Part shown: in pieces, positions 6,517 to 31,790 of the stretch
Numbering within the stretch: position 1 is the stretch's first letter
Layout of the letters: the number at the start of each line of letters is the position of its first letter
NCBI RefSeq assembly: GCF_910591625.1
Contig: NZ_CAJUXY010000041.1
Length of the DNA stretch: 32,000 nucleotides
Direction: 5' to 3' (one strand)
From: Candidatus Mycobacterium methanotrophicum
GTDB taxonomy: Bacteria > Actinomycetota > Actinomycetes > Mycobacteriales > Mycobacteriaceae
Position numbers and translations under genes: made by a program
The notes under the pieces: model-generated
The model's database searches: none
What the model saw: only the letters and a program-made list of their open reading frames with translations
What the model was told of the DNA's origin: nothing

Positions 6517-6574
6517 AGACTTAAGCCTTTGCGACGTGCGTCGGCGTGTCGTCACAACGGTTTACGTGTCGCGG
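6517..6574. repeat. 58-bp direct repeat, copy A (partner 7447..7504; 53/58 identical)
   Basis: AGACTTAAGCCTTTGCGACGTGCGTCGGCGTGTCGTCACAACGGTTTACGTGTCGCGG versus AGACTTAAACCAATGCGACGTGCCTCGGCGTGTCGTCACACCGGTTTACGTGTCGCGG. Copy A comprises the last 23 nt of the DUF559 CDS plus the 35 nt downstream of it. Confidence 0.85.
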
Positions 6575-7446: not shown

Positions 7447-7504
7447 AGACTTAAACCAATGCGACGTGCCTCGGCGTGTCGTCACACCGGTTTACGTGTC
7501 GCGG
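7447..7504. repeat. 58-bp direct repeat, copy B
   Basis: See copy A. On the minus strand it retains a ghost 3' end, ...SATRKPV*, of a DUF559-like ORF. It lies 38 bp upstream of the DUF559 start and 15 bp downstream of the DUF1990 stop. Confidence 0.85.
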
Positions 7505-15606: not shown

Positions 15607-15789
15607 CGGGCCTACTGCTGCATCGCCAGACGTAAGATGACGTCATGCGCACGCTGGGCCGCGGTGACCGGGGACGTGGCCCGCGTCGGTGGACGGCTCG
15701 CCCGGCGATATCGACGGCCCCGTACTGACATTTCTCCGGCGCAGCCGCATCACTAGACTGGGTTGACACCAGCCAAAAGGAGATCAGCA

Positions 15790-16710
15790 GTGGATACCGC
15801 CGCTTCGGCGAACGGCGCGACCGGCAGCCCGCAGACCGGGACGGCGCGGGTCAAGCGCGGGATGGCCGAGATGCTCAAGGGCGGCGTCATCATGGACGTC
15901 GTCACGCCCGAGCAGGCCCGCCTCGCCGAGGGCGCCGGCGCCGTCGCGGTGATGGCGTTGGAGCGGGTGCCCGCCGATATCCGCGTGCAGGGCGGCGTGT
16001 CGCGGATGAGCGACCCGGACATGATCGAGGGCATCGTCTCCGCGGTCACCATCCCGGTGATGGCCAAGGCCCGCATCGGGCATTTCGTCGAGGCGCAGAT
16101 TTTGCAGAGCCTCGGCGTGGACTACATCGACGAATCCGAAGTGCTGACCCCGGCCGACTACACCCACCACATCGACAAGTGGAAGTTCACCGTGCCGTTC
16201 GTCTGCGGCGCCACCAATCTCGGTGAGGCGCTGCGGCGGATCAACGAGGGCGCGGCGATGATCCGCTCCAAAGGTGAAGCCGGCACCGGCGACGTGTCCA
16301 ACGCCACCACCCATATGCGTGCGATCGGTGCAGAGATCCGTCGGCTGGGATCGGTGTCCGACAGCGAATTGTACGTGGCGGCAAAGGAACTCGCGGCGCC
16401 GTACGACCTCGTCGTGGAGGTGGCGCGGGCCGGCAAGCTGCCGGTCACGCTGTTCACCGCCGGCGGCATCGCGACGCCGGCCGACGCCGCGATGATGATG
16501 CAGCTCGGCGCGGAAGGGGTTTTCGTCGGGTCGGGCATCTTCAAATCCGGTGATCCGGCCCGGCGCGCCGCCGCGATCGTCAAGGCCACCACCTTCTTCG
16601 ACGATCCCGATGTGCTGGCCCGGGTGTCGCGGGGGCTCGGTGAGCCGATGGTCGGCATCAACGTCGAGGAGATCGCCGCGCCGCATCGCCTGGCCGAACG
16701 CGGCTGGTAA
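15790..16710 (+). CDS. pdxS: Pyridoxal 5'-phosphate synthase subunit PdxS
   Basis: ORF 15763 is trimmed to GTG 15790, which has AAGGAG 7 nt upstream. ...[46 protein letters not shown]... is near-identical to mycobacterial PdxS. Confidence 0.95.
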
Positions 16711-16712
16711 GT

Positions 16713-17561
16713 GTGTCGATCGAAAAGATCCTCGATCTCGAGCAACTTGAGGCCGACATCTACCGGGGCAGCGTGTTCAGCCCGGATTCCGGTTACTTTC
16801 AACGCACTTTCGGCGGCCATGTGGCCGGCCAGTCGCTGGTGTCGGCGGTGCGCACCGTCGAGCCGCACTTTCTGGTGCACTCGCTGCACGGGTATTTCAT
16901 CCGGCCCGGAGATGCCAAGGCGCCCACCGTTTTTCTCATCGAGCGGCTGCGCGACGGCGGCTCGTTTTGCACCAGGCGGGTCAACGCCGTCCAGCACGGG
17001 GATACCATCTTTTCGATGTCGGCGTCGTTTCAGACCGATCAGGAGGGTATCCGCCATCAGGATGCGATGCCGTCGGCGCCGCCACCGGAGGATCTGCCGG
17101 GCCTGAAATCGATGAAGGTGTTCGAGGACGCCGGATTTCGTCAGTTCGAGGAGTGGGACGTGCGCGTCGTGCCGCCCGACGAGCTGCAGCGGTTGCCCGG
17201 CAAGGCCTCCCAGCAGCAGGTGTGGTTTCGGCACCGCGATCCGCTGCCCGACGACCCGGTGCTGCACATCTGTGCGCTGGCCTACATGAGCGATCTGACC
17301 CTGCTGGGATCGGCGCAGGTGAATCACCTTGGCGAGCGGTCGCATCTGCAAGTGGCGTCGCTGGACCACGCGATGTGGTTCATGCGGGTGTTCCGGACCG
17401 ACGAGTGGTTGCTCTACGACCAGTCTTCGCCGTCGGCGTGCGGCGGCCGGGCGCTGTGCCAGGGCAAGATCTTCAACCAGTCCGGCGACATGGTCGCCGC
17501 CGTCGTGCAGGAGGGGCTGACCCGCTTCGCGCGCGGATATCGGCCGGCTGCTGGCCCGTGA
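16713..17561 (+). CDS. tesB: Acyl-CoA thioesterase II
   Basis: 282 aa, double hot-dog TesB pattern ([13 protein letters not shown]...[12 protein letters not shown]...ERLRDGGSF...YMSDLTLL...DHAMWFM...). Same position as tesB2 (Rv2605c). Confidence 0.9.
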
Positions 17562-18154
17562 GCGCCGTGCGGGTCGGGGTGTTAGCGCTGCAGGGCGACA
17601 CTCGCGAACACCTGGCGGCGCTGCGCGAGGCCGGGGCGTCTGCGGCGCCGGTGCGGCGGCGCTCGGAGCTGGACGCCTGTGACGCGTTGGTCATCCCCGG
17701 TGGCGAGTCCACCACGATGAGTCATCTGCTGCGCGACCTTGGTCTGCTGGAGCCGCTCCGCGAGCGGCTGGCCGACGGGTTGCCGGCTTACGGGGCGTGC
17801 GCAGGCATGATCCTGTTGGCCAGCGAGATCCTGGACGCCGGCGCGGACGGCCGCAAGGCTCTGCCGTTGTCCGGAATCGATATGACTGTGCGGCGCAACG
17901 CTTTTGGGCGTCAGGTCGACTCATTCGAAGGCGACGTGGCGTTCAGCGGGTTCGACGACCCGGTGCACGGGGTGTTCATCCGCGCGCCGTGGGCGGAGCG
18001 CTGTGGCGAGGGTGTGCAGGTGTTGGCGACTGCGGCCGGGCACGCCGTCGCAGTGCGACAGGGTCGGGTGCTCGCCACGGCTTTTCACCCGGAGGTGACG
18101 GGGGATCGGCGCATCCACCGGTTGTTCGTCGACATCGTCACCGGGGCGGCGTGA
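17558..18154 (+). CDS. pdxT: Pyridoxal 5'-phosphate synthase glutaminase subunit PdxT
   Basis: GTG 17558 overlaps the tesB stop (GTGA). [13 protein letters not shown]...[11 protein letters not shown]...[11 protein letters not shown]...[11 protein letters not shown]...TAFHPE matches PdxT. Confidence 0.9.
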
Positions 18155-18298
18155 CCGGCGCCGGGCAGCGCCCATCCGGTCACGTTCGAGACTCTGCGGC
18201 TCCTGGGGAAGCCGAGGCGGCGGCCGGTCAAGGGCCAGCCAGCGTCGACGTAGACTCGTCAGGCGAGCTTTTAGAGCAACAGAAGAGGTAGCCAGCAG

Positions 18299-19057
18299 AT
18301 GAGCGGCCATTCCAAGTGGGCCACCACCAAGCACAAGAAGGCCGTTGTCGACGCGCGTCGCGGCAAGAACTTCGCCAGGTTGATCAAGAACATCGAGGTC
18401 GCGGCCCGGGTCGGCGGCGGCGACCCGGCCGGCAACCCGACGCTCTACGACGCCGTCCAGAAGGCGAAGAAGAGCTCGGTGCCCAACGACAACATCGAGC
18501 GGGCGCGCAAACGCGGCGCCGGCGAGGAGGCCGGCGGCGCCGACTATCAGACCATCACCTACGAGGGCTACGGACCCAACGGTGTCGCGGTGTTGATCGA
18601 GTGCCTGACCGACAACCGCAACCGCGCCGCCAGCGAGGTGCGGGTGGCGATGACCCGCAACGGCGGCGCCATGGCCGACCCGGGCTCGGTGGCCTATCTG
18701 TTCGCCCGCAAGGGCGTGGTGACCTTGGAGAAGGACGGCCTGACGGAGGACGACGTGCTGACCGCCGTGCTGGAGGCCGGTGCCGAGGACGTCAACGACC
18801 TCGGCGACAGCTTCGAGATCATTTCGGAGCCAAGCGATTTGGTGGCGGTGCGGACTGCTTTGCAGGACGCCGGGATTGAGTACGAGTCCGCCGAGGCGGG
18901 TTTTCAGCCGTCGGTGAGCGTTCCGGTGGACGTTGACGGCGCACGAAAGGTGTTCAAGCTGGTCGACGCGCTGGAGGACAGCGATGACGTGCAGAACGTT
19001 TACACCAACATCGACGTCTCCGACGAGGTGCTTGCGGCGCTCGACGACGAGGAATAG
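18299..19057 (+). CDS. YebC/PmpR-family DNA-binding transcriptional regulator
   Basis: [37 protein letters not shown]...[28 protein letters not shown] is the canonical YebC signature (Rv2603c position). Confidence 0.95.
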
Positions 19058-19115
19058 CCGGCCCCTCGGCGTCCCCTCGTGCAGTACCGTTGACGCCCAA
19101 GCGCACGAATCGATC

Positions 19116-19481
19116 TCAACCGCGCTGGCCAGGCTGGCCGGGTTGGCCGGGTTGACCGGGCTGACCGCCTGGTCCGGGCGCGCCGCCGGCGCCGCCTGCG
19201 CCGGGCGCGCCGCCGGCGCCGGGGACCCCGCCATTGCCGCCTTGGCCACCGTGCCCACCGGCTCCACCTTGGCCGCCCGCGCCGCCATTGCCGCCGTTGC
19301 CGCCGCCACCGTTCGGAGAATCGAAGAGGGCCGGGCCATTGACCGTTCTGATGTGGTCGCTCACGCCCGCGTTGGCGGCGGGTGCGGCGGTCAGCGGAAT
19401 CACCGCTGCGGCCACAAACATGCCGGCGGTCGCAGCGACGCTGCGTGACAGGCGGTTTCGCTTACTGTCGGGATGAGCCAT
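19116..19481 (-). CDS. Secreted glycine-rich repeat protein (GGxGG and PGQ repeats; no PE domain)
   Basis: ATG 19481 overlaps the upstream gene's TAA (TAATG). Signal peptide ...MFVAAAVIPLTAAPAANA|GV. The C-terminal half is GGGGNGGNGGAGGQGGAGGHGGQGGNGGVPGAGG...GGQPGQPGQPGQPGQRG, encoded by a 9-bp periodic DNA repeat at 19125-19169. Confidence 0.6.
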   Translation of the reverse strand: MAHPDSKRNRLSRSVAATAGMFVAAAVIPLTAAPAANAGVSDHIRTVNGPALFDSPNGGGGNGGNGGAGGQGGAGGHGGQGGNGGVPGAGGAPGAGGAGGAPGPGGQPGQPGQPGQPGQRG

Positions 19482-20047
19482 TATGCGCACAGCTTGTCGA
19501 GTTGGGCGATTTGCGAGTCCAAGTCGTGGCGTAACGGATCCTGAGCAGCGGCTCCTGCCTGGGTGAGGTAGTTGATGCCCAGCTGTTCGATGGTGTTGGC
19601 AAAGGAATTGGCGGCGCTGGCGAGATCAGCTGGGGCGGCGGCATTTGCCTCCACTCGGTCCTGTAGGTATGCGCCACCGCCGATGAGGGCCAATCGTGCA
19701 TTGGTGGCCACCGAGAGCTCGGCAATGGGGTCGTTGGGGTTGGCGCTTTGCATGTGGGTGTTGATGACGACCGCTTTGTGGGCAGAGGCGTAGGCCGAGC
19801 AGACGTTGGCTTTCGCGTCGCCGCCTTGCTGAGCTATCGAGACCCCTTTGTGCGCCGGGTAGAAGTATGCCAGGCCGGCAACGACCACGGCGACCACCGC
19901 GATTGCCAGGGCCGCGTAGATCAGCCACCGCGACGCATCCGACCAGCTCGGGGTGGGCGCCGGTCTGCTGGTGGAAGACTCTTGGTCGGCGGGGGAATGC
20001 TTCTGGCTTGCCCCGTGGGGCGATTCGGTGACAGGTCGATCAGACAT
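19481..20047 (-). CDS. Single-pass membrane protein with Ala-rich extracytoplasmic domain (hypothetical)
   Basis: ORF 19481..20110 is trimmed to ATG 20047, which has TATCCT + 6 nt upstream (leaderless geometry). Pro/Ser-rich N-terminus, TM helix WLIYAALAIAVVAVVVAGLAYF, then a roughly 110-aa helical domain ending in Cys-Ala. Confidence 0.55.
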   Translation of the reverse strand: MSDRPVTESPHGASQKHSPADQESSTSRPAPTPSWSDASRWLIYAALAIAVVAVVVAGLAYFYPAHKGVSIAQQGGDAKANVCSAYASAHKAVVINTHMQSANPNDPIAELSVATNARLALIGGGAYLQDRVEANAAAPADLASAANSFANTIEQLGINYLTQAGAAAQDPLRHDLDSQIAQLDKLCA

Positions 20048-20220
20048 TGGCTGAGGATATCGCGCAATGTTGGCGTTGGTTGGGCATTGCCCAAATGTTT
20101 TCGGCCACATCGGGTTGCCTCGAGCAGCTCATGACGCCGCGTCCGACCGCGGTTATCCGCGGCTGAAGGCCCGTGGAGATGACACGCCGAGCCGTCAGGT
20201 CCGGCGCGCGAATGACGGCG

Positions 20221-21477
<1,257 letters not shown>

Positions 21478-21734
21478 TCAAGGATGAAACGCTTCGGCCG
21501 AGAGCGTCAGCGGATCCACAGATCGTCTTCTCATCCCCGGAGCGATTATGGGCTACTCCCGTTCCGCCCGCACGCGGGGTCCGGCAACCGCTCCACGTTT
21601 GTTCATACCCGAAGGCGTTCGCATCGAGACCCCGGCGCGCTTTTGTGCGCCGCGGTGAGGTCTGGCGACTGGCGATGCGGTTTACGAACGAACAAAGTAG
21701 ACAAAAGTAGATAATTCGCTGGTATCTTGGCCGC

Positions 21735-21986
21735 ATGAAGTCCATCTCCGTCGGTGAGCTGCGCCAGAATCCTGCTCCAATGATCGCCGGCCTCGAAGGG
21801 GGCGAGCCGTACGCGCTGACCCGCCATAACCGCCGGATCGGCACGATCCTTCCCGCGGTCTCGTCGGCAGCCCTTATTCCCCGGAAGGCAAACGGACCCG
21901 CACGTACCCGCACAATCGCCCGCCACGACCTCACCACGGCATCGACAATCGATGAGCTTCTCAACGAAGAAAAGGGCCTGTGGTGA
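21735..21986 (+). CDS. vapB: Type II antitoxin, Phd/YefM-like VapB
   Basis: 83 aa. MKSISVGELRQNPAPMIAGLEGGEPYALTRHNRRIGTILP is a Phd/YefM N-terminal fold. Overlaps the downstream PIN gene. TATCTT (21723-21728) + 6 nt + ATG. Confidence 0.8.
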   Translation: MKSISVGELRQNPAPMIAGLEGGEPYALTRHNRRIGTILPAVSSAALIPRKANGPARTRTIARHDLTTASTIDELLNEEKGLW

Positions 21987-22381
21987 CTCACCATTACCTC
22001 GACAGCTCGGTCGCGGTGCGCATCATGCTCGCCCATTCGCCGTCAGCGGCCCGATGGTTCGACAGCACGACCGGCAGAGACGCTGATCGCGTCGTTTCCT
22101 CACGCATCCTCCGCACCGAGATCACTCGCGTATTGCGACGGGAGAGCTTGCCGGTCGCCGACCGCGACCAGATTCTGGACTACATCGACACGATCCCGCT
22201 CGACCACGCCGTTTTGCAGGAAGCGGAAGCAATCATCCCTCACATTCGCACGCTCGACGCCATTCACCTCGCGTCGGCGTTGCGTTCCGGCCTCGATGAC
22301 CTTGTTATCACCACGCACGACATGACCATGAAATCGGTGGCTGTGATGCTTGGGTTCCGTATCGCCGATCCGGTGGAATAG
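21980..22381 (+). CDS. vapC: PIN-domain ribonuclease toxin VapC
   Basis: 133 aa. Acidic PIN residues lie in YLDSS, RTEITR, LDAIHLASAL and TTHD. Start GTG 21980/21983 overlaps the vapB stop. Confidence 0.85.
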   Translation: MVTHHYLDSSVAVRIMLAHSPSAARWFDSTTGRDADRVVSSRILRTEITRVLRRESLPVADRDQILDYIDTIPLDHAVLQEAEAIIPHIRTLDAIHLASALRSGLDDLVITTHDMTMKSVAVMLGFRIADPVE

Positions 22382-22452
22382 CGCACCTTGCGGGCCAGTC
22401 GAGTCCGCGCACCGGAGACGCTCGTGGCGAGATCCCGGTAGGCTTTTGCGAC

Positions 22453-22812
22453 ATGACCGAGCCGTCCGGGAACCTCGAATCCCGAATGGATGCGCCGGAG
22501 GCGCGTGTCGATGAGCTCGCCGAACAGCTGCAGGAAGCCAGGCAGGACGAGGTTGCCGCGCGAGTGCTTGCGGGGGGAGCCGATCGGGACGTCGAACAAG
22601 CGCGCAGCGAGATCCGCGGTTTTCGGCAGGCCACGGTTGCGAGCTTCAACGCCATGCGCGACGATCTGATCGACCTGGGGGCCCGGATGGACAGCGGGTT
22701 CGCCGATGTGCGCGGACAACTAGACACGACCGCAGCCGGGCTCGCCCACATCACAGCCCTATTGACCGGGTTGACCGGTGGGCGCGAGGACGACAGCGCC
22801 GGGCCTGCTTGA
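22453..22812 (+). CDS. Hypothetical coiled-coil protein (119 aa)
   Basis: Third-position G/C enrichment favours this frame over the two overlapping minus-strand ORFs. Heptad-like acidic/Arg-rich helix (RVDELAEQLQEARQDEVAARVLAGGADRDVEQARSEIRGFRQ). No family recognised. Confidence 0.45.
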   Translation: MTEPSGNLESRMDAPEARVDELAEQLQEARQDEVAARVLAGGADRDVEQARSEIRGFRQATVASFNAMRDDLIDLGARMDSGFADVRGQLDTTAAGLAHITALLTGLTGGREDDSAGPA

Positions 22813-22940
22813 TCTTTGCCGGTCGTCGGTGGGCGTCGGCAACGCACCTAACGCAGAGGCTTCAGACGACTCTCGCCTCGATTCGCGGCGCCGGTGACGA
22901 GGGGGACCCGAGCGGCTGAGAGCCCTGCGCGCAGGTTGGG

Positions 22941-24509
22941 TCAGATCCCCGATAGCAGGTCCACTAGGTTGACCAGGGTACCGCCGAGGTTCTCCGCGAC
23001 GGGTGGGATCACCGCGTACGCCAGCGCGAACGGGAGCAATCCTGCGGTGATACCGATCCCGTCGGCGAGCCCGGCGAGCGGGTCACCGGCCTGGAGTTGG
23101 TCGGCGAAGACATTGCCAACTTCCGTCGGGAGGCTGGTAAGCAGCGCGTTGATGGTGTCGGCGATGGGGAGCAGCGTCGCGTAGTCGGCCGAGAGCGTGC
23201 CGCTGAGATCGTTGACGATGTCGGACGGCGAGGAGGCCAATGTGGCATTTGACGTCGGGAAACCGGCGAACTCCTCGAGCACGGTGCGCGCCAGCTCCAG
23301 CAGCTCCGACGGATTCGCCAGCAGCTGCGACGGGGTGGTGGCATCGGTGAAACCCAAGGTATGCGCGGCGCCCACCAAGGGCGAGAGAGCGTCCAACGCC
23401 GCGGTCTGGTCGGCGGCCGGATTGTGTAGATCGCCGAGCGCGGTCGTGATGCCTTGCTGTGCCCCGTTGACCAAGTCGGTGAAAAGCTGGCTGAGGTTGA
23501 TATCGGTCGGCAAAAACCCGACCGGGGTAGCCACGTTCGCCGGTCCTTGGTTCCAGCCTTCGGTGAGGCTGCCGTAGCCCAGGTCCACCAGTATGCGGGT
23601 GTCCGGTTCCAACAGGTCATACAACGGTTTCAGGCCGAGCGACAGCAGCGGCTCCAGCAGCGGCAGATGTTGGTCGGGAATCACGTAGTAGTTGGTCAGG
23701 GTGTCGGCCACCGACGTCGGCAGTTGGATTGCGTCTTGGATTTGTTCGGGGGACAGATCTGCATAGGTGAGGTGCTGGAAAGTGATGCCGGAAAGCGCGT
23801 TGAGGGTGGACAGCTCGTCGATTGGGTAGCGCGGCAAGTCGGCGAAGCCGTCGTATTCCAAGGTGTACACGTCGGTGGGGTAGAGGTCGCTGGGTTGGTC
23901 GCCGGTGAAGGTGAGGCCCAGGGCGGGCACCGACGGGTCGGCGCCGACGGGGTCGTCGAAGCTTGAGAGGGAACCCCCGTTGGGCGCGCTTTCGTCGCCC
24001 ACCAGCACGAAATGAACGTCGTCGCTGGGCACGCCTTGCTTGGCGAGCTCCGGCATCAAATCCGACGAGATCACCGAGCTTTGGGAGTAGCCGAACACCA
24101 CGACCGGGTTTTCGGCGTCCACGTGCCCGCCGGCGATCTGATGCAGGATATCGGTGTCGAGGATTTGTTGGCCCTGGGCCTCCGAGGTGTCGAAGGGCAA
24201 GCTCTTGACGCCGGTGATCGGGTACAAGGCCTCGGGAGTGTCCACCGGTTGCAGAGTGCCGTCGAAGCCGCGTGGCGCCAGGTAGAGCTGGTCGACCGCA
24301 TCCACATAACCCTGCGGAGGGATGGGGATGCCGCTGGGGCCGACGACTAACGCCGTGCCGTCGCCCAGCGGCGAATCCGCGGTGTCAATGCTGGTGAGCT
24401 TGACCGCGCGTGCTTGTGGTCCCGGTGACAACGTCGGCGGCACAGCGATCAGGCCGACGCCGGCCATGACGATACCGGTGGTGACATGGGCAAACCGACG
24501 ACCTGACAA
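22941..24509 (-). CDS. Stand-alone PE-PPE-domain (PF08237-like) serine hydrolase with N-terminal signal/TM segment
   Basis: 522 aa. ALVVGPSGIPIPPQGYVDAVDQLYL...ALYPITGVKSLPFDTSEAQG...VVVFGYSQSSVISS...APNGG...YPTDVYTLEYDGFADLPRYP...LVDLGYG matches the PE-PPE domain with its GxSxS/G nucleophile elbow. There is no PE or PPE N-terminal module. TTG 24509 has GAGAGG upstream. Confidence 0.8.
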   Translation of the reverse strand: MSGRRFAHVTTGIVMAGVGLIAVPPTLSPGPQARAVKLTSIDTADSPLGDGTALVVGPSGIPIPPQGYVDAVDQLYLAPRGFDGTLQPVDTPEALYPITGVKSLPFDTSEAQGQQILDTDILHQIAGGHVDAENPVVVFGYSQSSVISSDLMPELAKQGVPSDDVHFVLVGDESAPNGGSLSSFDDPVGADPSVPALGLTFTGDQPSDLYPTDVYTLEYDGFADLPRYPIDELSTLNALSGITFQHLTYADLSPEQIQDAIQLPTSVADTLTNYYVIPDQHLPLLEPLLSLGLKPLYDLLEPDTRILVDLGYGSLTEGWNQGPANVATPVGFLPTDINLSQLFTDLVNGAQQGITTALGDLHNPAADQTAALDALSPLVGAAHTLGFTDATTPSQLLANPSELLELARTVLEEFAGFPTSNATLASSPSDIVNDLSGTLSADYATLLPIADTINALLTSLPTEVGNVFADQLQAGDPLAGLADGIGITAGLLPFALAYAVIPPVAENLGGTLVNLVDLLSGI

Positions 24510-24788
24510 TGACGACCTCTCTGGTCAGAGACGGCGACGGGTCCGCCCGCAGTAGAACACCCCAACCATTGTGAGTCAAACGCACACATTTTGCTAAACC
24601 TGGTGCGCGGGTCGCACCCGGAAAGATGTTGGTGGCCAAGACATCAGGCCGCCGCTACCAACCAGCACGGCGGAACGGCCGACCGCTCGGCGTGGTCTGC
24701 CGTCCGGCCGTAATCGGCGTCGCATGGCCGAAGTGTAGGGGTGGCCGCTGCGGCCGGTTGATCGTCGGTGACCCCACCGTGCCTCTGT

Positions 24789-25094
24789 CTAGGGACCCTG
24801 CTCGCTGCGGTCGACCGCAAGGCGCGCCAGCAGTACGGCCGGCACCGGGTCGGGCATCCCTCGTCGTAGGCGCGAGGGAGCGCGGTCGTGAGTGACCGCG
24901 CTCATCGCCAGCGCGTAGTAGCCCACGACCGTGTCGCCTCGGCGCAGCACGTAGGTGGCTGCGGTGCCAGCTAAGGCGGCGATGTGCGCGGAGTTTCGCA
25001 ACCAGCGATCAAGATCGGCGACTCCGGAGTCGAACCGATCGAGGCGATGCTCGACGGATAGCAGCTCGACGGGTCGAAGCTTCCCGCCGTTCAC
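24789..25094 (-). pseudogene. GNAT-family (TacT-like) acetyltransferase toxin, truncated after 101 codons
   Basis: Start overlaps the antitoxin stop (ATGA). ...FDSGVADLDRWLRNSAHIAALAGTAATYVLRRGDTVVGYYALAMSAV...AVLLARLAVDRSEQG then stops, exactly where the acetyl-CoA motif (Q/R-x-x-G-x-G/A) and the last ~60-70 aa should follow. Confidence 0.65.
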
Positions 25095-25375
25095 CGAAAT
25101 GGGATCGGGCTTGGCTCTTGGGCGTAGCGGCTCAGGGTTGGCATCGGCTCAATCTCGGCATCGAGTGCAGCGACGAACCGTTCGAATGCCGCGCTCTTAA
25201 TGGCGATACGTCCGGCATTTTCGAGGACGTGGGTGGCGCGCTCTCCTGCAGCCGAAAGCATGAAGCCCGTCAGTGTCTCGCCGGCCGCCTCCGCGGCAGC
25301 GCGCAGACGGGCCTCTTGGTTTGCGTCTACCCGCAGGTTGATTCGCCCATGGCTCTTGTGTTCGACGGAAGCCAT
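25091..25375 (-). CDS. DUF1778 (TacA-like, RHH) antitoxin
   Basis: 94 aa. GRINLRVDANQEARLRAAAEAAGETLTGFMLSAAGERATHVLE is the DUF1778 pattern that pairs with GNAT toxins. Confidence 0.8.
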   Translation of the reverse strand: MASVEHKSHGRINLRVDANQEARLRAAAEAAGETLTGFMLSAAGERATHVLENAGRIAIKSAAFERFVAALDAEIEPMPTLSRYAQEPSPIPFR

Positions 25376-25447
25376 CCCGCCGTTGTACTCACTCGGTACG
25401 TACGCATAGACGACCCGGCGGTTTGCCTCCGTTGCGTCGCCTCCCGA

Positions 25448-25919
25448 CCGCTCAAGGCGAAAGAGGCGTGCTAGTGGCCGGTCAACGCATCCAACGAAAA
25501 TTGCATGTCTGTCGGCTGGTGCACCTGGACCCGGTCTCCGTCGAGCGCCGCAACTTGTCGATAGATTTCGCCGTCGAGGCGGTAGACGACAAATCGGTCA
25601 TCAATCGGTGCGTCGGGATCGACGATCCAGTAGTTCGCGATGCGCGCCTTGGCGTACTCGTGCGACTTCATGACGTGGTCTCGCCCACGCGAGCCCGGCG
25701 ATACGATCTCGACGACGAGCACAGCATCGGCTGCCGGAATCCGGGCAAGGCGTCCCTGGAACACGCGATCCGGAACCACCACGATGTCAGGCTCACGGAC
25801 GCTCGGCGGGAACGATGGGCTCGTGATCACCTCGATCTCGGGAACAGCCTCGAAGCCATCCGGCAGGTGATCATCGAGAATGCGGACAAGCCTTTTCGAA
25901 ATGCGCTGATGCCACAGTT
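25448..25919. repeat. 472-bp direct repeat, copy 1 (partner 30327..30798; 471/472 identical)
   Basis: Constant offset of 4879 bp. The single mismatch is T25838 versus C30717. Flanks diverge at both ends (a/t before the repeat, t/c after it). Confidence 0.95.
25471..25919 (-). pseudogene. Uma2-family (DUF820) endonuclease, 5'-truncated duplicate
   Basis: Identical to the C-terminal 149 codons of the 30350..30922 gene (one substitution). The N-terminal ~40 codons are replaced by unrelated sequence (MVHIDGDYARTAEDAAAHRPRPTAAMK...). Confidence 0.7.
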
Positions 25920-26102
25920 TCATCGCTGCTGTGGGGCGTGGGCGGTGAGCGGCCGCATCTTCGGCGGTGCGGGCGTAATCGCCGTCGATGTGCACCACGC
26001 TGAGCCCATGACGGACGGCGTGGGCTCCGCATGGTTGCCCTCGGCTGGGAATCTCGCAGCATCGACGTTGCCTGACTCCCGCCGCGTATCCTTACCTCGA
26101 GC

Positions 26103-26148
26103 GAATAGTAAGGAATAGTAAGGAATAGTAAGGAATAGTAAGGAATAG
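26103..26148. repeat. 10-bp tandem repeat GAATAGTAAG x4 plus a partial unit, ending 2 nt before the antitoxin ATG
   Basis: gaatagtaag gaatagtaag gaatagtaag gaatagtaag gaatag cg ATG(26151). Strongly AT-rich for this genome. Each unit carries an SD-like TAAGGA. Confidence 0.95.
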
Positions 26149-26150
26149 CG

Positions 26151-26411
26151 ATGGACGCTGCGGCCAAGCTGACATCAAAGGGGCAGGTGACCGTCCCGAA
26201 GGCGGTGCGGGATGCGCTCGGCCTCAAGGAGGGCGACGACGTGATCTTCCGGGTGGAAGGCAATCGAGCGGTGCTGGCCCGGACGCCGAACTTCCTCACC
26301 CTGGCCGGAACTGTGCGTGTCCCGGCGGCGAAACGCAACGTCGCGTGGGATGTCGCGTGGGATGAGGTGATCCGCCGCAGCCGGGCCGCTCGAGCTGCAG
26401 ACCGCCGTTGA
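26151..26411 (+). CDS. vapB: AbrB/SpoVT-type antitoxin (VapB/MazE-like)
   Basis: 86 aa. KLTSKGQVTVPKAVRDALGLKEGDDVIFRVEGNRAVL is the swapped-hairpin AbrB/SpoVT motif. The stop overlaps the downstream PIN ORF (TTGA). Confidence 0.8.
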   Translation: MDAAAKLTSKGQVTVPKAVRDALGLKEGDDVIFRVEGNRAVLARTPNFLTLAGTVRVPAAKRNVAWDVAWDEVIRRSRAARAADRR

Positions 26412-26811
26412 CCGCGATCGTTGACACCGACGTCCTTGCGCGTCATCTGGCGGGCGACCCGCCTGAGATCGCGGCCCGCGCGACTGCCTACCTCGGGACC
26501 GGGCAAGAGTTACTGCTCGCTGACCTCGTCGTGGCTGAGACGGTGTAGGTGGTGGAGTCCTTTTACCGAACGCCCCGCGGCCACGTTGCCGAAGCCATGA
26601 GATCGCTGATCGCATTCGACTCCGTTGTGTGTGTGTGGATCCGGCGCTTCTTTTGCGTGCGGTCGAGGTCTACGAGGCTGACCGGATCGATTTCGCGGAG
26701 GCATATCTTGTCGCGTGCGCCGAGAGCGCCGGGGTCATCAAGGTAGCCTCTTTCGACCGGTCCATCGATCGCATCAATACGATCGAACGGATTGAACCGC
26801 CGCCGGTCTGA
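26408..26811 (+). pseudogene. vapC: PIN-domain VapC toxin inactivated by an in-frame TAG and a frameshift in a (TG)6 tract
   Basis: TTG 26408 reads TAIVDTDVLARHL...LLLADLVVAETV, then TAG (26546-26548), then VVESFYRTPRGHVAEAMRSLIAFDSVVCV. The frame shifts at (TG)6 26626-26637, then reads DPALLLRAVEVYEADRIDFAEAYLVACAESAGVIKVASFDRSIDRI. The joined sequence is a full-length PIN domain. Confidence 0.75.
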
Positions 26812-26875
26812 TCCGCAAGCGCCCGCGCGGCAACAGCCGGCAAGACCCGGCGGGACACCACGAACTCCCGCTGAT

Positions 26876-27166
26876 TTGGGGGCCAAAACCTTTGGGGCGC
26901 AACGCTATCGGTGTGGCCGCGCGAGGCGCCGTTCGGCGCCGACGGCGGTGGCCCCCGAGTTGATCTGTGTGCTGGCGTTCACCAGCGTCGAACGCCCCGC
27001 CTGGGCGCGTCGGGTTCGCGTCGCTTCCGGCGGCGGCTGGGCCGTCGCCGAGCAGATCCGCGCCGTGGCCGGCGACCGGTTGCGCCGCTACGCGCCCGAG
27101 ATCCGGCTATCGGCGGCAGAACTCAACGAAGTACGGCACATACTGGGGCAAATGCCGATCGTCTGA
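26876..27166 (+). CDS. MazF/PemK-like toxin, orphan (no adjacent antitoxin); start uncertain
   Basis: The C-terminal part of ORF 26792..27166 has high third-position G/C. ...GAQRYRCG...ELICVLAFTS...WAVAEQIRAVAGDRLRRYAPEIRLSAAELNEVRHILGQM resembles the MazF core and C-terminus (compare MazF4 QVYRCDLG..., from memory). TTG 26876 is the first plausible start. Confidence 0.45.
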   Translation: MGAKTFGAQRYRCGRARRRSAPTAVAPELICVLAFTSVERPAWARRVRVASGGGWAVAEQIRAVAGDRLRRYAPEIRLSAAELNEVRHILGQMPIV

Positions 27167-27534
27167 GTCTCACGCGGTATGCATGCCGTAATGACGAAAG
27201 ACTCTGGGCGGCAAGTGCTTTCGGCAGGTTACAAACATCGGCGCTCAACTGCGTGAATTCTTGACGTGCTCCCCGCCTGAAGGGCGAGGATTCCCGTGGC
27301 GGCTTACGCCGCTGTTGGGTTGCTTCCTGCTTCAACATCCACTGCCGCAACGGGCACAGGCTGAACCACCACTCCTGGTGTGGTCCTGCCCACTGTCGTG
27401 GGAGGCGTTTCGTCTCTCCGCCCGTGGCGCGCCTGGCCGTATCATCGCCCGACTCGATGCCGAGGATTCCGGCCTGCTGCGCGGGTGTGGTGTGCCCGGC
27501 CGGGGCTGCCAGCGTGAATACGGTCGCTACGGGA

Positions 27535-27912
27535 TCAGGCGCTTACTCGCCCGGCGGATAGCTGCGACACCCGTTGCGGTGACACGCCGAGAACCGTTCC
27601 CACGTCTCGGACCGATAAGCCCTTCGCCCTGAGACTAGCGACCAAGCCACGAACATCCTCCGCAGCGCGCCGCTGGGCTGCGTCGGCTTCGGCGGCTTCG
27701 GCACGTACCCGTTCGACGGCGGACTGGATGTCGTCAGGGAGGGCCGGTCGGACTGTCACCTCGACAGCGACATCCGTCAACAAGCGCGCGGCATCTGCGA
27801 CGACGGCAGCAACCTGATCGAGACGGCGTGCCTGCGTGAACAACCCGGGGAGTTCGGGCACCTCGACCGCCCACCACCCCCCGGTGCGTGTGGCAACGGC
27901 GGTGACTCGCAT
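27535..27912 (-). CDS. HicB-like antitoxin (UPF0150 N-domain + C-terminal HTH), no hicA partner present
   Basis: ORF 27535..28053 is trimmed to ATG 27912, which has GGGGAG 7 nt upstream. MRVTAVATRTGGWWAVEVPELPGLFTQARRLDQV is a HicB-type N-terminus. The C-terminal HTH is LSVRDVGTVLGVSPQRVSQL. Confidence 0.7.
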   Translation of the reverse strand: MRVTAVATRTGGWWAVEVPELPGLFTQARRLDQVAAVVADAARLLTDVAVEVTVRPALPDDIQSAVERVRAEAAEADAAQRRAAEDVRGLVASLRAKGLSVRDVGTVLGVSPQRVSQLSAGRVSA

Positions 27913-27976
27913 GACTACTCCCCTTTCTCTCGGAAATACGACAAAAGCCCTGGTCGGCGGTCGCGCCGGATAAGGG

Positions 27977-28048
27977 TATGCGTCGAGTGTGTGGTTCTGT
28001 ACGCCAGCGCGCGGCGTGTCGCGTACAAAACCGCACACTCGACGCATT
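27977..28048. repeat. Inverted repeat with 27-bp arms (25/27 complementary) and 18-nt spacer
   Basis: ATGCGTCGAGTGTGTGGTTCTGTACGC (27977-28003) and GCGTACAAAACCGCACACTCGACGCAT (28022-28048). It lies 65-136 nt upstream of the hicB-like start. Confidence 0.85.
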
Positions 28049-28135
28049 TCCATCCCCCACCCCGGGGCGAAGCCCCCCTGATAGCTGCTCGTTTATCACG
28101 GGTTTCCAGTGTTGTGTTCGGCTGAACCGGTCGGC

Positions 28136-28549
28136 TCAGACTCCGACGATGGTCAGGAGGTGTTCAAGCCCTCGGAAGTCATCGACGTTGCGCGTGTAGA
28201 GCGGGAGGTTGGCGGCCAGGGCGGTGGCGGCGATCAACAGATCGACGGCTCGCGGGCCACGTGCCTTGCGCCCCGTCGCGACGATCGCGGCGTAGACGCG
28301 TCCGTAGGCTCTCGCCGAGTCGTTATCGAACGGCAGGGGATCGAAGCTGGCCTCGGCTCGTTGTAGCCGATCTTGACGTCGTGCTCGCTCGCCGGCGTCG
28401 GCTGTCGCGTGCGGGCCGGCGGCGAGCTCGGCCGTGGTAAGGGCGCTGATGGCGAGTTCCATCGGGAGCTGCTCGGCGTCGATGTGATCCAGATCGATCA
28501 CGACCGAGGTGTCGATGAGCCCGCGCGACGGTCGAGGAGTCTCAGCCAC
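28136..28549 (-). CDS. vapC: PIN-domain toxin VapC
   Basis: ORF 28136..28702 is trimmed to GTG 28549, which overlaps the vapB stop (GTGGCTGA). LIDTSVVIDL...ALTTAELAAGPH...FDNDSARAYG...VDLLIAATALAANLPLYTRNVDDF is a PIN signature. Confidence 0.85.
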   Translation of the reverse strand: MAETPRPSRGLIDTSVVIDLDHIDAEQLPMELAISALTTAELAAGPHATADAGERARRQDRLQRAEASFDPLPFDNDSARAYGRVYAAIVATGRKARGPRAVDLLIAATALAANLPLYTRNVDDFRGLEHLLTIVGV

Positions 28550-28796
28550 GGGGCATGATCTCCTGGCTGGCGGCCCGATCGAGATCTGCTCGGAACCGGT
28601 CGAACCCCACCGGCGGAGCGCCCCTGAACGCGGCGACGGCCGCCTCGGCGCTGACGAATCGATGGCGGCGCAGCGGGGAAAGCTCGCCGACCGGGACTCC
28701 ATTCCTGGTCACGACGAACGACTCGCCTTGGTCGAGCCGGCGCATAATGTCGCCGCTGTTATTGCGCAGCTCCCGCTGGGTGATCTGCTTGGCCAC
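28542..28796 (-). CDS. vapB: Phd/YefM-type antitoxin VapB
   Basis: 84 aa. MAKQITQRELRNNSGDIMRRLDQGESFVVTRNGVPVGEL. Confidence 0.8.
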   Translation of the reverse strand: MAKQITQRELRNNSGDIMRRLDQGESFVVTRNGVPVGELSPLRRHRFVSAEAAVAAFRGAPPVGFDRFRADLDRAASQEIMPRG

Positions 28797-28822
28797 ACCG
28801 GGAGGGTAGCACGCGTGCTACC
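28797..28822 (-). promoter_or_regulatory. Palindromic operator overlapping a leaderless promoter of vapBC (28796..28136)
   Basis: Perfect 18-bp palindrome GGTAGCACGCGTGCTACC (28805-28822). On the minus strand its 3' half supplies TACCCT (28808-28803). That is followed by 6 nt and then the GTG start (28796). Confidence 0.5.
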
Positions 28823-28940
28823 CAGGCTATCCACGGCGCCAATCACCCCAAGGGCCATGGCACGGGCAACGGCGGAACCGATCATCCGCACGCTGCCACA
28901 CGCCGCCTTCCACCGCAGAATCACCCGCTTGTCTCCACCA

Positions 28941-28976
28941 GGCCTTATTTAAGGCCTTATTTAAGGCCTTATTTAA
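28941..28976. repeat. 12-bp tandem repeat GGCCTTATTTAA x3; junctions form the 10-bp palindrome TAAGGCCTTA
   Basis: ggccttatttaa ggccttatttaa ggccttatttaa. AT-rich. The last unit overlaps the TAA stop (28973-28975) of the mazF-like remnant. It lies about 145 bp upstream of the vapB start at 28796. Confidence 0.95.
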
Positions 28977-29297
28977 GCGATTTGGATGTCCAGAATCAGG
29001 GACAGAGCGCGCTCGATCTGGCGCATCGTCTCAGGCGCCAAGCTGCCCATCCGCTGCGATAGGCGGGTACGTGCGACGGCACGGATGGCGCGGCAGACCG
29101 CGACGCTTTCTGTGTCCACACCTTCGCTCGGTGACAGCTGTGGTCGCAACGGGTTGCCGGTCAGCGAGCTCGACACCGGCACGACGACAACGAGTTCGTC
29201 GTCGATGCCGGCGAGTAAGTCGTCGACAGAGACGACGACGGCCGGGCGGTGTTTGCCGGGTTCGCCGGCGCGGACGGCGCCAAGGATTGTCGTTCAC
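28973..29297 (-). pseudogene. MazF/PemK-like toxin remnant (N-terminus out of frame with its start codon)
   Basis: Open frame 29293..28973 reads [53 protein letters not shown]...[40 protein letters not shown], a MazF core. The only start with an SD (GAAGGAG + 9 nt + GTG 29297) is in another frame, and a TGA (29296-29294) precedes the MazF frame. Confidence 0.6.
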
Positions 29298-29407
29298 AGC
29301 TGCGCTGGCTCCTTCGCAGTCAACTGTGATCGCGTAGCGCTCGGCTGGCCGCGAGCATCCTGGATCCGGCGTCGTATTCCCCTCCCATGGCCGCGAGTAT
29401 CAGCGGT

Positions 29408-29435
29408 GTAGCACATTGCGTGCTACGGTAGGTGG
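29408..29435 (+). promoter_or_regulatory. Palindromic operator overlapping a leaderless promoter of vapBC (29436..30124)
   Basis: GTAGCAC-ATTGC-GTGCTAC (29408-29426). TACGGT (29424-29429) + 6 nt + GTG 29436. The half-sites and geometry match those at 28797-28822. Confidence 0.5.
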
Positions 29436-29714
29436 GTGGAGGCAATCGGAGTTCGCGAGTTGCGGCAGCACGCATCGCGATACCTCGCCCGGGTGCAAGC
29501 CGGCGAGGAGATCGGCGTCACCAGCAACGGACGACTCGTAGCCCGACTCGTCCCCGTGCAGGCCCCGGCACGGTCTCGCGAAGCACTGATCGATGCCGGT
29601 GCCCTGATTCCGGCGCGGCACCCGCAAAACCTTCTGGACGTCACGGCCGCACCCGCGCGGGACGGCAAGCGCACCTTGTCCGATGTCCTCAACGAGATAC
29701 GCAACGAGCAGTGA
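29436..29714 (+). CDS. vapB: Phd/YefM-type antitoxin VapB
   Basis: 92 aa. [40 protein letters not shown]. Confidence 0.8.
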
Positions 29715-30124
29715 TCTACCTGGACACCTCGGCCCTGGCCAAGCTGCTCATCGCCGAGCCGGAGACGCCCGAACTGCAGACCTGGCTCACCGCGCAAAGC
29801 GGGCAGGGCGAATACGCGGTGACCAGCGCGCTTGGCCGGGTCGAATTGATGAGAGTTGTTGCCCGATACGGGGAACCGGGCCTGGCTGATCGCGCGCGCT
29901 ATCTGCTCGACGGGCTCGACATCCTTCCGCTCGCCGAACCGGTGATCGCTCTGGCGGAAACAATTGGCCCGCCCACTCTGTGCTCTCTCGATGCCATTCA
30001 TCTCGCAGCCGCCGCCCATATCGAGCGGGAACTTGCCGTGTTCGTCACCTACGATCACCGGCTGTTGGACGGTTGCCGTGAGGTCGGCCTGGCATCCGCA
30101 TCACCCGGTGCCGCAGTTCCCTAA
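29711..30124 (+). CDS. vapC: PIN-domain toxin VapC
   Basis: GTG 29711 overlaps the vapB stop (GTGA). [13 protein letters not shown]...[10 protein letters not shown]...[12 protein letters not shown]...FVTYDHRL is a PIN signature. In frame with ORF-track entry 29432..30124. Confidence 0.85.
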
Positions 30125-30149
30125 CCGCCCGCTCGAGCTCGACGAGCCC

Positions 30150-30329
30150 TCACACGACCTGCAGGCCCTCGGGGACGTTCTTCGGATCGCGCCAGAACGC
30201 GTCGTTGACGAAGCGGTTGAACAGGTCCGGCGGCAGCAGACTCGCGCGCCGCTCCGCCCTGACCCTGGGGGCCACCGTGTGCAGCCCTGGAGTGCCGGCG
30301 CGTTCGTCGAATTCGGTGACGTCGTTCCG
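30150..30329 (-). pseudogene. 3'-terminal 59 codons of an unidentified gene, cut off at the repeat boundary
   Basis: Minus-strand frame RNDVTEFDERAGTPGLHTVAPRVRAERRASLLPPDLFNRFVNDAFWRDPKNVPEGLQVV* has high third-position G/C and no start. Its upstream end coincides with repeat copy 2 (30327). Confidence 0.3.
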
Positions 30330-30798
30330 CTCAAGGCGAAAGAGGCGTGCTAGTGGCCGGTCAACGCATCCAACGAAAATTGCATGTCTGTCGGCTGGTG
30401 CACCTGGACCCGGTCTCCGTCGAGCGCCGCAACTTGTCGATAGATTTCGCCGTCGAGGCGGTAGACGACAAATCGGTCATCAATCGGTGCGTCGGGATCG
30501 ACGATCCAGTAGTTCGCGATGCGCGCCTTGGCGTACTCGTGCGACTTCATGACGTGGTCTCGCCCACGCGAGCCCGGCGATACGATCTCGACGACGAGCA
30601 CAGCATCGGCTGCCGGAATCCGGGCAAGGCGTCCCTGGAACACGCGATCCGGAACCACCACGATGTCAGGCTCACGGACGCTCGGCGGGAACGATGGGCT
30701 CGTGATCACCTCGATCCCGGGAACAGCCTCGAAGCCATCCGGCAGGTGATCATCGAGAATGCGGACAAGCCTTTTCGAAATGCGCTGATGCCACAGTT
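30327..30798. repeat. 472-bp direct repeat, copy 2
   Basis: See copy 1 (25448..25919). Confidence 0.95.
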
Positions 30799-30922
30799 CC
30801 GGAGGCGGCGACATGACGAGTGTCCCCTCACTGAGCTCCCACCGTCGCGTCGCGTCGAGTTCGAGCGCATCCCACTGCTCTAGGCTCAGCAATCCACGTG
30901 GCAGATGGGCAAGCTCGGTCAC
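30350..30922 (-). CDS. Uma2-family (DUF820) putative restriction-endonuclease-like protein, full length
   Basis: 190 aa. GTG 30922 has GGAGGAGG upstream. ...WELSEGTLVMSPPPELWHQRISKRL...REPDIVVVP...AVLVVEIVSPGSRGRDHVMKSHEYAKARIANYWIVDP matches the Uma2 PD-(D/E)xK pattern. Confidence 0.8.
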   Translation of the reverse strand: MTELAHLPRGLLSLEQWDALELDATRRWELSEGTLVMSPPPELWHQRISKRLVRILDDHLPDGFEAVPGIEVITSPSFPPSVREPDIVVVPDRVFQGRLARIPAADAVLVVEIVSPGSRGRDHVMKSHEYAKARIANYWIVDPDAPIDDRFVVYRLDGEIYRQVAALDGDRVQVHQPTDMQFSLDALTGH

Positions 30923-31226
30923 AGCGCACCTCCTCCCGGTGGAACTCGAGTGATTGCAGACTACGCTCGACGGGCGATCGGGATCCGAGTCTGGCGTATC
31001 CCGATGACAAGGGCCGCCAGCTGTCCACAGACCCGTCGTTTCTGGGCGGGCTTCGCGGCCAGAGGGTCGCGGCGCGCATCACCGAGGCGCCAATTGAACT
31101 GAGCCGGAATCGAAACCGCGGTTTTTGTCGCAGCGACGTTTCAGGCATAGCGCCGTACGGATGAGCCAACACTGGGCGCCGGACATGAAAGTGCTTGCCG
31201 GACACAGTGTCGCGACTGCGCCGATT

Positions 31227-31520
31227 TCAATTCCTCGTCAATTGGCTGGCGATGGCGCGCGCGTTGACGTCGGGCAGCTCGTCAAACCGCGCGTGCCGGT
31301 CGGTAGTGAGGATGGTGCGGCCAGTGACGCGGGCAGTGGCGGCCACGATGAGGTCATGGGGGCCTCGTCGCCGGCGTTCGCGTGCGGTGGAGGCCAACAA
31401 AGCGGCATGGTGCTCGGCCACCGATCGGTCATATGCGCAGACCGGTGTGACGGTGAGGACGTCGGCGAGAAATGCCCGCTGTGCCGCGGGGCTGGATGAG
31501 GGACATTTCAGCGATGCGAT
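31227..31520 (-). pseudogene. vapC: PIN-domain VapC toxin, 3' fragment (N-terminal third missing)
   Basis: ...AAQRAFLADVLTVTPVCAYDRSVAEHHAALLASTARERRRRGPHDLIVAATARVTGRTILTTDRHARFDELPDV is the C-terminal two-thirds of a VapC. The first-Asp segment is absent and no antitoxin lies upstream. Confidence 0.6.
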
Positions 31521-31790
31521 GTTCGACGCGCCCGCACCCCCACTTGCGCAGCGCCCGCCAGATCCGCGCCGCAACCGACGCAGGCGCCCGGCTCATGGTG
31601 CACGGTCTCGTCCGGGTCATCCACCAACCGCAACGTCGACCCGGGATGCCCGGGCTGCCCACCCGGCTTGCGGCCGCTCCTTCGACGCAACGACTTCGGC
31701 ACCGGTGGGGCGCAGCAGGATCGAAGATGATCGGGAATGGGTACGAGGCCAGCGCCTCCTCAATCGACTCGTCTGAAATGCGCGCCCGCA
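31521..31790 (-). mobile_element. IS66-family transposase (TnpC) N-terminal fragment, fused to the vapC fragment
   Basis: ORF 31508..31702 reads SLRRRSGRKPGGQPGHPGSTLRLVDDPDETVHHEPGACVGCGADLAGAAQVG. This matches the conserved SGRKxGGQPGHxGxTL...P..C..CG zinc-finger region of IS66 TnpC. Similarity ends at about 31520, and the rest of the transposase (over 350 aa) is absent. Confidence 0.6.

Follow-up and report, generated by a model that had tools for sequence, protein, structure and literature searches.

Uma2 repeats around a toxin-antitoxin block of Candidatus Mycobacterium methanotrophicum: a rearrangement scar probably formed in several steps

How do two almost identical pieces of one gene come to stand on either side of an array of decaying toxin-antitoxin (TA) genes? 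The question is raised by a 32,000-nucleotide (nt) stretch of DNA (the window, to which all coordinates refer) from the cave Mycobacterium Candidatus Mycobacterium methanotrophicum, located in its 4.72-Mb single-contig chromosome (CP097320.1). Comparison of the window with itself confirmed the two direct repeats described in the initial annotation, R1 at 25448–25919 and R2 at 30327–30798, each 472 bp long and identical at 471 of the 472 positions. Both carry the 3′ end of a gene of the Uma2 family and enclose a block of TA genes. The near-identity had been taken to imply a recent duplication or insertion. Our data speak against this: the junctions at the repeats differ in age, the junction between R1 and the block is found in a second strain, and the copies appear to have exchanged sequence. 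We put a probability of roughly 60% on a rearrangement-prone variable region in which several illegitimate joins were made at different times and the copies later exchanged sequence, rather than on one fresh duplication. We read the structure as a scar left by rearrangement and not as an artefact or a mobile element.

The repeats consist of the terminal 449 bp of the 573-bp Uma2 gene and 23 bp beyond its stop codon, in agreement with the first description, and outside both edges the likeness of R1 and R2 drops at once to the random level. The sole mismatch is T at 25838 in R1 versus C at 30717 in R2. R2 (minus strand) is the 3′ part, with the 23-bp flank, of a full-length Uma2 gene of 190 amino acids (aa) at 30350–30922 on the minus strand, which together with its conserved leader and promoter region forms a unit at 30350–31010. 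The protein passes the PF05685 profile (E 3e-26; 92 bits, cutoff 27) over positions 2–169 of 172. R1, also on the minus strand, is a 5′-truncated pseudogene that matches PF05685 only over positions 28–169 of 172 (73 bits). It is without the N-terminal helix of the profile, and unrelated sequence takes the place of about 41 N-terminal codons. The open reading frame (ORF) of the pseudogene spans 25471–25998, with an ATG at 25924 sitting on the junction, and orthologue homology in R1 ends at 25917–25919, exactly at the truncation point. By family membership Uma2 is a PD-(D/E)XK-like putative endonuclease, with 9y1l and 6okh as its relatives in the PDB; the literature that mentions the family gives no function for it. 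The second copy, which had been called intact, is indeed full length but carries a derived Gly codon at 30717, where Glu stands in R1 and in all 18 mycobacterial orthologues whose frame is unbroken at this point. In the PDB alignment the Gly/Glu site is not the conserved acidic position.

The age of the left junction can be judged from GCA_975650575.1, another assembly of Ca. Mycobacterium methanotrophicum. Its 5.8-kb contig 4 matches 25697–30277 of the window at 99.1–99.4% and carries both the R1/block junction (25919/25920) and the T allele of R1. As the junction is common to both strains, it is older than their split and is not an artefact. Along the matching part, contig 4 has one GAATAGTAAG tandem-repeat unit fewer, is without 76 bp that form a hairpin in the window and differs by about 20 substitutions. 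Past 30277 it has no R2. In its place stands a sulfotransferase pseudogene that is longer and has an internal deletion of its own, followed by a 135-bp Uma2 3′ remnant that is only 93% identical and by a Gly-rich PGRS-like tail.

In the window, R2 abuts the C-terminal stump of a sulfotransferase gene (30150–30326, minus strand, about 60 codons), which is cut exactly at the R2 edge. The stump has 36 homologues named sulfotransferase (65–84% identity), and in M. shottsii a 79-aa equivalent comes after a 189-aa Sulfotransfer_3 ORF. The homology extends up to 30326, and 30326/30327 is therefore a genuine breakpoint. This stump/R2 junction is absent from GCA_975650575.1 and is specific to the window genome. 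Both strains descend from an ancestor in which the sulfotransferase gene was more complete. The 93% Uma2 remnant was considered as a second instance of the stump/R2 junction and was rejected; the sulfotransferase breakpoints differ and the flanks share no more than about 11 nt of homology. The R1/block, stump/R2 and remnant junctions show no common motif. The exact 190-aa Uma2 protein and the 64-aa ORF to the right of Uma2 are on record only in CP097320. The protein collection holds the full-length 190-aa product as well as a truncated 150-aa product beginning MKLWHQ, the latter from a further NCBI contig of 41 kb.

The contig ends in GCA_975650575.1 carry an indirect sign of an alternative linkage at the repeat. 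The 25-kb contig 110 matches 15091–25837 of the window at 99.94%; it passes from the TA gene tacA through the left repeat edge and ends at 25837, one base before the single-nucleotide polymorphism (SNP). Contig 4 has its end at 25697, giving an overlap of exactly 141 nt, and no contig fork is seen at the left edge of the repeat. These ends probably mark a non-reconverging fork at the SNP in a de Bruijn graph with k=141. A de Bruijn assembler would merge a plain SNP bubble; a fork in its place points to two SNP alleles whose branches part, on the right side, within 141 nt. Both alleles would thus be present in the sample, with branches that part in the manner of R1/block and R2/Uma2-5′, and the repeat would have a single left flank, tacA. 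Such a pattern is most simply explained by a mixture of two haplotypes, tacA-R(T)-block and tacA-R(C) followed by something else, most likely the intact gene. The second haplotype would be the single-repeat allele that the initial annotation had suggested to look for. The contig of the other branch would measure about 1.3 kb and have repeats at its ends.

Two markers inside the repeat sort the copies in different ways. The dinucleotide just past the stop codon (25468–9 and 30347–8, in the Uma2 sense) is a derived AC in both R1 and R2 and GT in the GCA_975650575.1 repeat and in its 93% remnant. The T allele at 25838, on the other hand, is common to R1 of both strains. The dinucleotide groups the copies within a genome and the SNP groups R1 across genomes, which argues for gene conversion or recombination between copies or alleles. 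Given this exchange, the 99.8% identity is no clean clock for the duplication. In the flank and left block (12.7 kb) the strains differ at 5.5e-4 per bp, as compared to 7.5–9.6e-3 per bp in 28403–30268, the 1.9 kb beside the strain-specific junction. The excess is 14–18-fold (p 1e-8 to 1e-11). In the compared stretch, 24 differences change the GC content and the window has A or T at 21 of these sites (p 3e-4); all three SNPs that could be polarised with an outgroup (locus L021, from a metagenome-assembled genome, MAG) are derived in the window. The dense stretch was either imported with the junction from a donor diverged by about 1% or mutated during the repair that made the junction. A complex multi-base change is located at 28877–28885.

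Uma2 orthologues (75–85% nt identity) are found in about 20 Mycobacterium genomes. Homology between their loci is confined to 30350–31010, that is, to the gene and a leader of about 90–95 nt, and among Mycobacterium species eight or more different contexts of this unit are seen, with flanks that vary by species group. The leader (30923–31010) is conserved in 15 Mycobacterium species, unlike all sequence farther upstream. Its elements are TTGTCG, a GCGTAATCTGCA motif and, ahead of the GTG start, a GGAGG ribosome-binding site. Neither tacA nor genes for sulfotransferase, SIR2, WhiA or MerR were found beside the Uma2 orthologues of other species. Past the stop codon, no conserved sequence exists among 18 orthologous loci, which indicates that there is no attachment sequence or cassette end. 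The point 23 bp past the stop codon was considered as a candidate for a conserved cassette end and is ruled out by the same loci. An all-versus-all tblastx comparison of the Uma2 flanks was dominated by noise in this high-GC DNA, and a 20-mer of the repeat is absent from the JGI metagenomes, where the species is apparently not present. Several of the orthologous genes in MAGs (L012, L015, L018, L021) read as frameshifted, which could reflect pseudogenes or long-read consensus errors. In one Mycobacterium locus (L001) a second Uma2 N-terminus (20454–20561 of that locus, 67% identity over 36 aa) lies 10 kb downstream in the same orientation, where the retrieved sequence ends.

The history that we favour would begin with an older join, common to both strains, in which Uma2 at about codon 42 was fused to the upstream region of an AbrB-type vapB at 25919/25920. 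A younger, strain-specific join would have set a full-length Uma2 gene, with 23 bp of its native tacA-side 3′ flank, against the truncated sulfotransferase gene at 30326/30327. This second join would be explained most simply by one homologous crossover in or beyond Uma2 and one illegitimate end in the sulfotransferase gene, and its partners would have been a chromosome with the truncated-Uma2/TA block and DNA in which tacA-Uma2 was intact. Either a circle was reinserted in Campbell fashion, on this view, or the join is a case of homology-facilitated illegitimate recombination. Sequence exchange between the copies would have come afterwards. The copies would be near-identical because the second join is recent and exchange followed it. 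Both the order of events and the mechanism are inferred.

The initial annotation also predicted that recombination between the repeats would excise the block. The length of the repeats suffices for a RecA-type deletion, for which they would be a substrate, and the contig ends described above are an indirect sign of alternative linkage; the deletion itself we infer. TA loci stabilise dispensable DNA, and by analogy the two apparently live vapBC pairs of the block would penalise cells that lose it.

Several points weigh against the proposed history. The comparison with related genomes that had been suggested as a check dated the R1/block junction through the second assembly, but it yielded the pre-rearrangement arrangement in no genome; the Uma2 orthologues of about 20 species stand in unrelated contexts. 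As for the shared dinucleotide, it may be the lineage of the other strain that has changed, for example by a short conversion from the 93% remnant. The comparison comprises two strains and one short outgroup, and the direction of most changes is deduced from the GC-to-AT bias. The alternative linkage is deduced from the position of contig ends, and both assemblies were judged from their assembled contigs.

A single recent step, in line with the initial annotation, is one alternative to a series of joins. Either a 472-bp Uma2 piece would have been copied between tacA and vapB, perhaps by capture during end joining, or the insertion of a 4.9-kb unit would have duplicated the Uma2 3′ end. The 471/472 identity and the sharp edges are what such an event would leave. 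If R1 is taken out, a plausible 303-bp divergent promoter region remains between tacA and vapB, and other captured-looking fragments are near, namely a methyltransferase relic of 41 bp and, in GCA_975650575.1, the Uma2 remnant of 135 bp. However, the second strain has the R1/block junction and the R1 T allele without the stump/R2 junction, so R1 is no fresh copy, and the two repeat edges belong to junctions of unlike age; we regard a one-step origin as quite unlikely. Two old Uma2 paralogues, one of them long truncated, might instead have been homogenised over their shared length by gene conversion, with the edges marking the end of the ancestral homology. Some exchange between the copies is indeed required by the mixed pattern of the derived dinucleotide and the SNP, and the 93% remnant shows that older diverged Uma2 copies exist in the region. 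What makes this explanation unlikely is that the stump/R2 junction is missing in the other strain, so that a structural event separates the strains too, and that the left edge of R2 coincides with the breakpoint truncating the sulfotransferase gene. Gene conversion alone also leaves the 14–18-fold excess of differences beside the junction unexplained.

For a dedicated mobile element, either a cassette that integrates site-specifically into Uma2 and brings a replacement 3′ end, or Uma2 as a nuclease gene of the homing type that leaves 3′ fragments when its copying aborts, one may cite the three same-orientation Uma2 3′ fragments (R1, R2 and the 135-bp remnant) that bound TA blocks in two strains, the eight or more contexts of Uma2 with its leader of about 90 nt, and the two Uma2 genes 10 kb apart in L001. 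Profile searches of the block ORFs found no integrase, transposase or recombinase domain; each ORF-bearing unit between the repeats could be assigned either to a TA family or to the sulfotransferase remnant. Integrase genes and insertion sequence (IS) ends are missing in and beside the block. The missing conservation past the stop codon leaves no defined cassette end across species, the three junctions are without a common motif, and the block genes are not beside Uma2 in other species. The layout is not that of a composite transposon either, since the bounding repeats are direct Uma2 fragments and no trace of an IS exists apart from a weak IS66 fragment that lies outside the unit. We consider a mobile element very improbable. 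An assembly artefact, in which the duplication or one junction would be a mis-join in CP097320 from a mixed population, has in its favour that the source of the genome is a population that was uncultured or enriched (as the Candidatus name shows), that the stump/R2 junction is known from the CP097320 assembly only, and that GCA_975650575.1 hints at mixed haplotypes. Yet the copies differ by one base and were assembled separately, the R1/block junction is reproduced in an independent assembly, and both the 190-aa product and the 150-aa truncated product, the latter from a further contig, are on record. An assembler, moreover, needs supporting reads to join non-homologous sequences such as those at 30326/30327, and we give an artefact hardly any credence.

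A more far-reaching extension would see the block as a polymorphic TA cassette, excisable and re-insertable, anchored on the Uma2 repeats; the 14–18-fold substitution cluster would be a mutation shower of error-prone break repair, and the Uma2 nuclease, or breaks at its gene, would seed the rearrangements, which would account for the repeated occurrence of Uma2 3′ fragments at junctions. We hold this to be speculative and rather improbable. If true, a mycobacterial genome would for the first time show a footprint that links break repair and the turnover of a TA island to an Uma2 nuclease gene.

The block that the successive joins would have enclosed is about 4.4 kb long. Seven TA-related units had been counted in it; six are of TA type, and the seventh is the sulfotransferase C-terminus. 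The block is without function as a unit, a patchwork of gene fragments comprising the six TA units, the sulfotransferase stump and the 41-bp methyltransferase relic. Next to R1 lies an intact AbrB/MazE-type vapB of 86 aa (26151–26411, plus strand; PF04014, E 1e-13), followed by a vapC (PIN) pseudogene (26408–26811, plus strand) in which a three-frame reading shows an in-frame stop at about 26546 and a frameshift at about 26630. After repair of its translation, the PIN profile matches over 2–117 of 120 (E 1.7e-10); the pair at 26151–26811 thus has no uninterrupted PIN frame and is not counted as an intact VapBC. A mazF-like pseudogene follows at about 26905–27166 (plus strand), with a frameshift near 26957 in the frame reading and no antitoxin partner. 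Its repaired translation is below the threshold for PemK (E 0.004) and the unrepaired ORF is without a match. At 27535–27912 (minus strand) an orphan hicB-like gene of 125 aa with a helix-turn-helix (HTH) domain is assigned from scores below the gathering cutoffs of both families (HicB_lk_antitox, E 0.002, 18.8 bits against a cutoff of 27; HTH_23, E 3e-4). No hicA-sized ORF is located beside it, and it is not classed as HicAB.

Both intact TA pairs within the block are vapBC. The profile searches assigned one to 28136–28796 on the minus strand, with a Phd/YefM-type vapB at 28542–28796 and a PIN vapC at 28136–28549 (PIN E 6e-9, Phd E 1.4e-5, NCBIfam VapC E 1e-11); a counterpart at 85% nt identity (to 28126–28821) lies 6 kb from Uma2 in one MAG (L021). 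The other, at 29436–30124 on the plus strand, has a Phd/YefM-type vapB at 29436–29714 (Phd E 4e-10) and a PIN vapC at 29711–30124 (PIN E 2e-10). Between the two pairs lies an orphan mazF at 28973 to about 29290 (minus strand). It had been listed as a remnant, and it has lost its first 13 or so residues, its normal start codon and mazE, but it is otherwise nearly complete, with a PemK match over 14–109 of 109 (E 2e-17) in a 106-aa reading. Neither this gene nor the mazF-like pseudogene at 26905–27166 combines a complete PemK/MazF domain with an adjacent mazE. Near-complete PIN profiles with Phd/YefM-type genes upstream are found at three places, in the vapC genes at 21980–22381, 28136–28549 and 29711–30124, and antitoxin and toxin genes overlap by 4–8 nt in all three intact pairs. 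The four acidic PIN residues can be read in the translations of the intact vapC genes, and these pairs are predicted to be true VapBC systems. Within the block, only the two vapBC pairs look functional, as far as can be judged from their translations. Our own inventory of 21.7–31.6 kb agrees with the earlier count of nine TA loci, of which three appear intact.

Smaller sequence elements are found between these genes. Both AT-rich tandem repeats reported previously were located. One consists of 4.6 units of GAATAGTAAG at 26103–26148 in a tandem-repeat scan and abuts the vapB start codon; its count differs by strain, with 3.6 units in GCA_975650575.1. Each 10-bp GAATAGTAAG unit contains an AAGGA Shine-Dalgarno-like motif, and the array is a possible operator or variable-number tandem repeat. 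The other has 3.2 units of AGGCCTTATTTA at 28940–28977, with near-palindromic TTAAGGCCTTA(A/T) units, and is the same in GCA_975650575.1. The inverted repeat, first given as 72 bp, is present and forms a strong hairpin, but measures 70 bp (27978–28047), with 27-nt arms at 27978–28004 and 28021–28047 and a 16-nt spacer. The arms are 93% complementary and the predicted fold has a free energy (dG) of -63.6 kcal/mol (z = -7). The 76 bp at 27964–28039 that give rise to the hairpin (arms and loop) and are missing from GCA_975650575.1 have 2 nt of microhomology at the indel edges; the indel may be an insertion or a palindrome deletion. No further copy of the hairpin or of either tandem repeat was found in any locus compared. 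At the mazF truncation point, between mazF and the next vapB, lies the 41-bp relic (29284–29324, minus strand), tentatively assigned to the start and upstream region of a methyltransferase gene from its 83% identity to 21431–21471 (self-BLAST E 1.4e-4). The relic and the methyltransferase gene (407 aa) each open an ORF with MNDNP.

The block sits downstream of a housekeeping cluster of conserved pdxS, tesB-like, pdxT and yebC genes that ends near 19 kb on the left side. Between this cluster and R1 lie the flanking intact vapBC pair (21735–22381, with its vapC identified by the PIN profile at 21980–22381) and tacA (94 aa, 25091–25375, minus strand; TacA1 PF08681, E 8e-20). A shortened ORF of 101 aa (24789–25094, minus strand) stands in the tacT position; it has no Pfam or NCBIfam match, and its position and length suggest a truncated GNAT toxin. 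A 119-aa ORF at 22453–22812 (plus strand) has no family match and has homologues of about 50% identity beside vapBC-like pairs in two Mycobacterium loci (L011, L021); it may be an unrecognised companion of vapBC-like modules. Further to the left, a direct repeat of 58 bp (91% identical, 6517–6574 versus 7447–7504) has its copies 930 bp apart.

To the right of Uma2, a C-terminal remnant of a PIN (vapC) gene lies at 31227–31574 (minus strand; PIN E 1e-3, VapC E 2e-4). A 64-aa ORF at 31508–31702 (minus strand), a possible IS66 transposase N-terminus with a weak NCBIfam match (E 0.016), overlaps the PIN remnant ORF and abuts the edge of the SIR2-WhiA duplication. The latter is a 2.76-kb segment from 31710 rightward (hypothetical gene, SIR2, WhiA-like) that recurs at 4.31 Mb with 99.93% identity, with identical WhiA proteins in both duplicate copies. 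Beyond it, further 99% pieces of the 4.31-Mb locus, part of MerR and a 1.18-kb piece, are rearranged. As the neighbourhood holds other recent segmental copies such as SIR2-WhiA, the repeat-bounded block belongs to a wider mosaic that recent rearrangements have produced. A resolvase gene (serine recombinase, PF00239) is located about 10 kb to the right of the block, at about 41.3–41.4 kb in window coordinates, and the variable region therefore extends well past the window. Scans found no tRNA gene or Rfam element in or beside the block, a promoter and terminator scan gave no signal above the shuffled expectation, and a megablast search of a plasmid collection with 25000–31200 gave no match.

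The locus is a well-resolved case of how a mycobacterial chromosomal TA array is built up and decays by illegitimate joins, fragment capture and homologous exchange, with two strains of one species showing different states of the array. It is also a caution that near-identical repeats do not equal a single recent duplication. For the annotation of the genome, the gain is one Uma2 pseudogene copy, several TA pseudogenes and a sulfotransferase remnant. The known working of these gene families is unchanged, and we see here a known kind of genome plasticity rather than a new genetic system.

Among described systems, islands that duplicate the 3′ end of a target gene at tRNA or protein-gene attachment sites, and that accrete in tandem, resemble the locus in having gene-3′-end direct repeats around an accessory block, and the third, older 3′ remnant in the sister strain adds to the likeness. 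They differ in that the locus has no integrase or excisionase, a 472-bp repeat instead of a short core and no attachment sequence conserved across species. Campbell-type insertion and homology-facilitated illegitimate recombination produce the same arrangement of a full gene, inserted DNA and a 5′-truncated direct copy, from one homologous and one illegitimate junction. Here, in contrast, the repeat edges apparently come from different events, and the donor, the circle and the deleted allele are deduced. Chromosomal TA loci stabilise dispensable DNA in superintegron cassettes and, as mosAT, in SXT. The two apparently live vapBC pairs inside a segment that the repeats could delete would be analogous, although most modules of this block are dead. 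The closest relatives in content are the mycobacterial clusters of type II TA systems (VapBC, MazEF, HicAB, TacAT). The position of the locus, next to the pdxST-tesB-yebC cluster, probably resembles the site of vapBC41 in M. tuberculosis. The clusters share with the locus the same families, the two-gene layout and orphans beside pseudogenes. Unlike them, this one is bracketed by long near-identical direct repeats, and its structure differs between two strains of one species.

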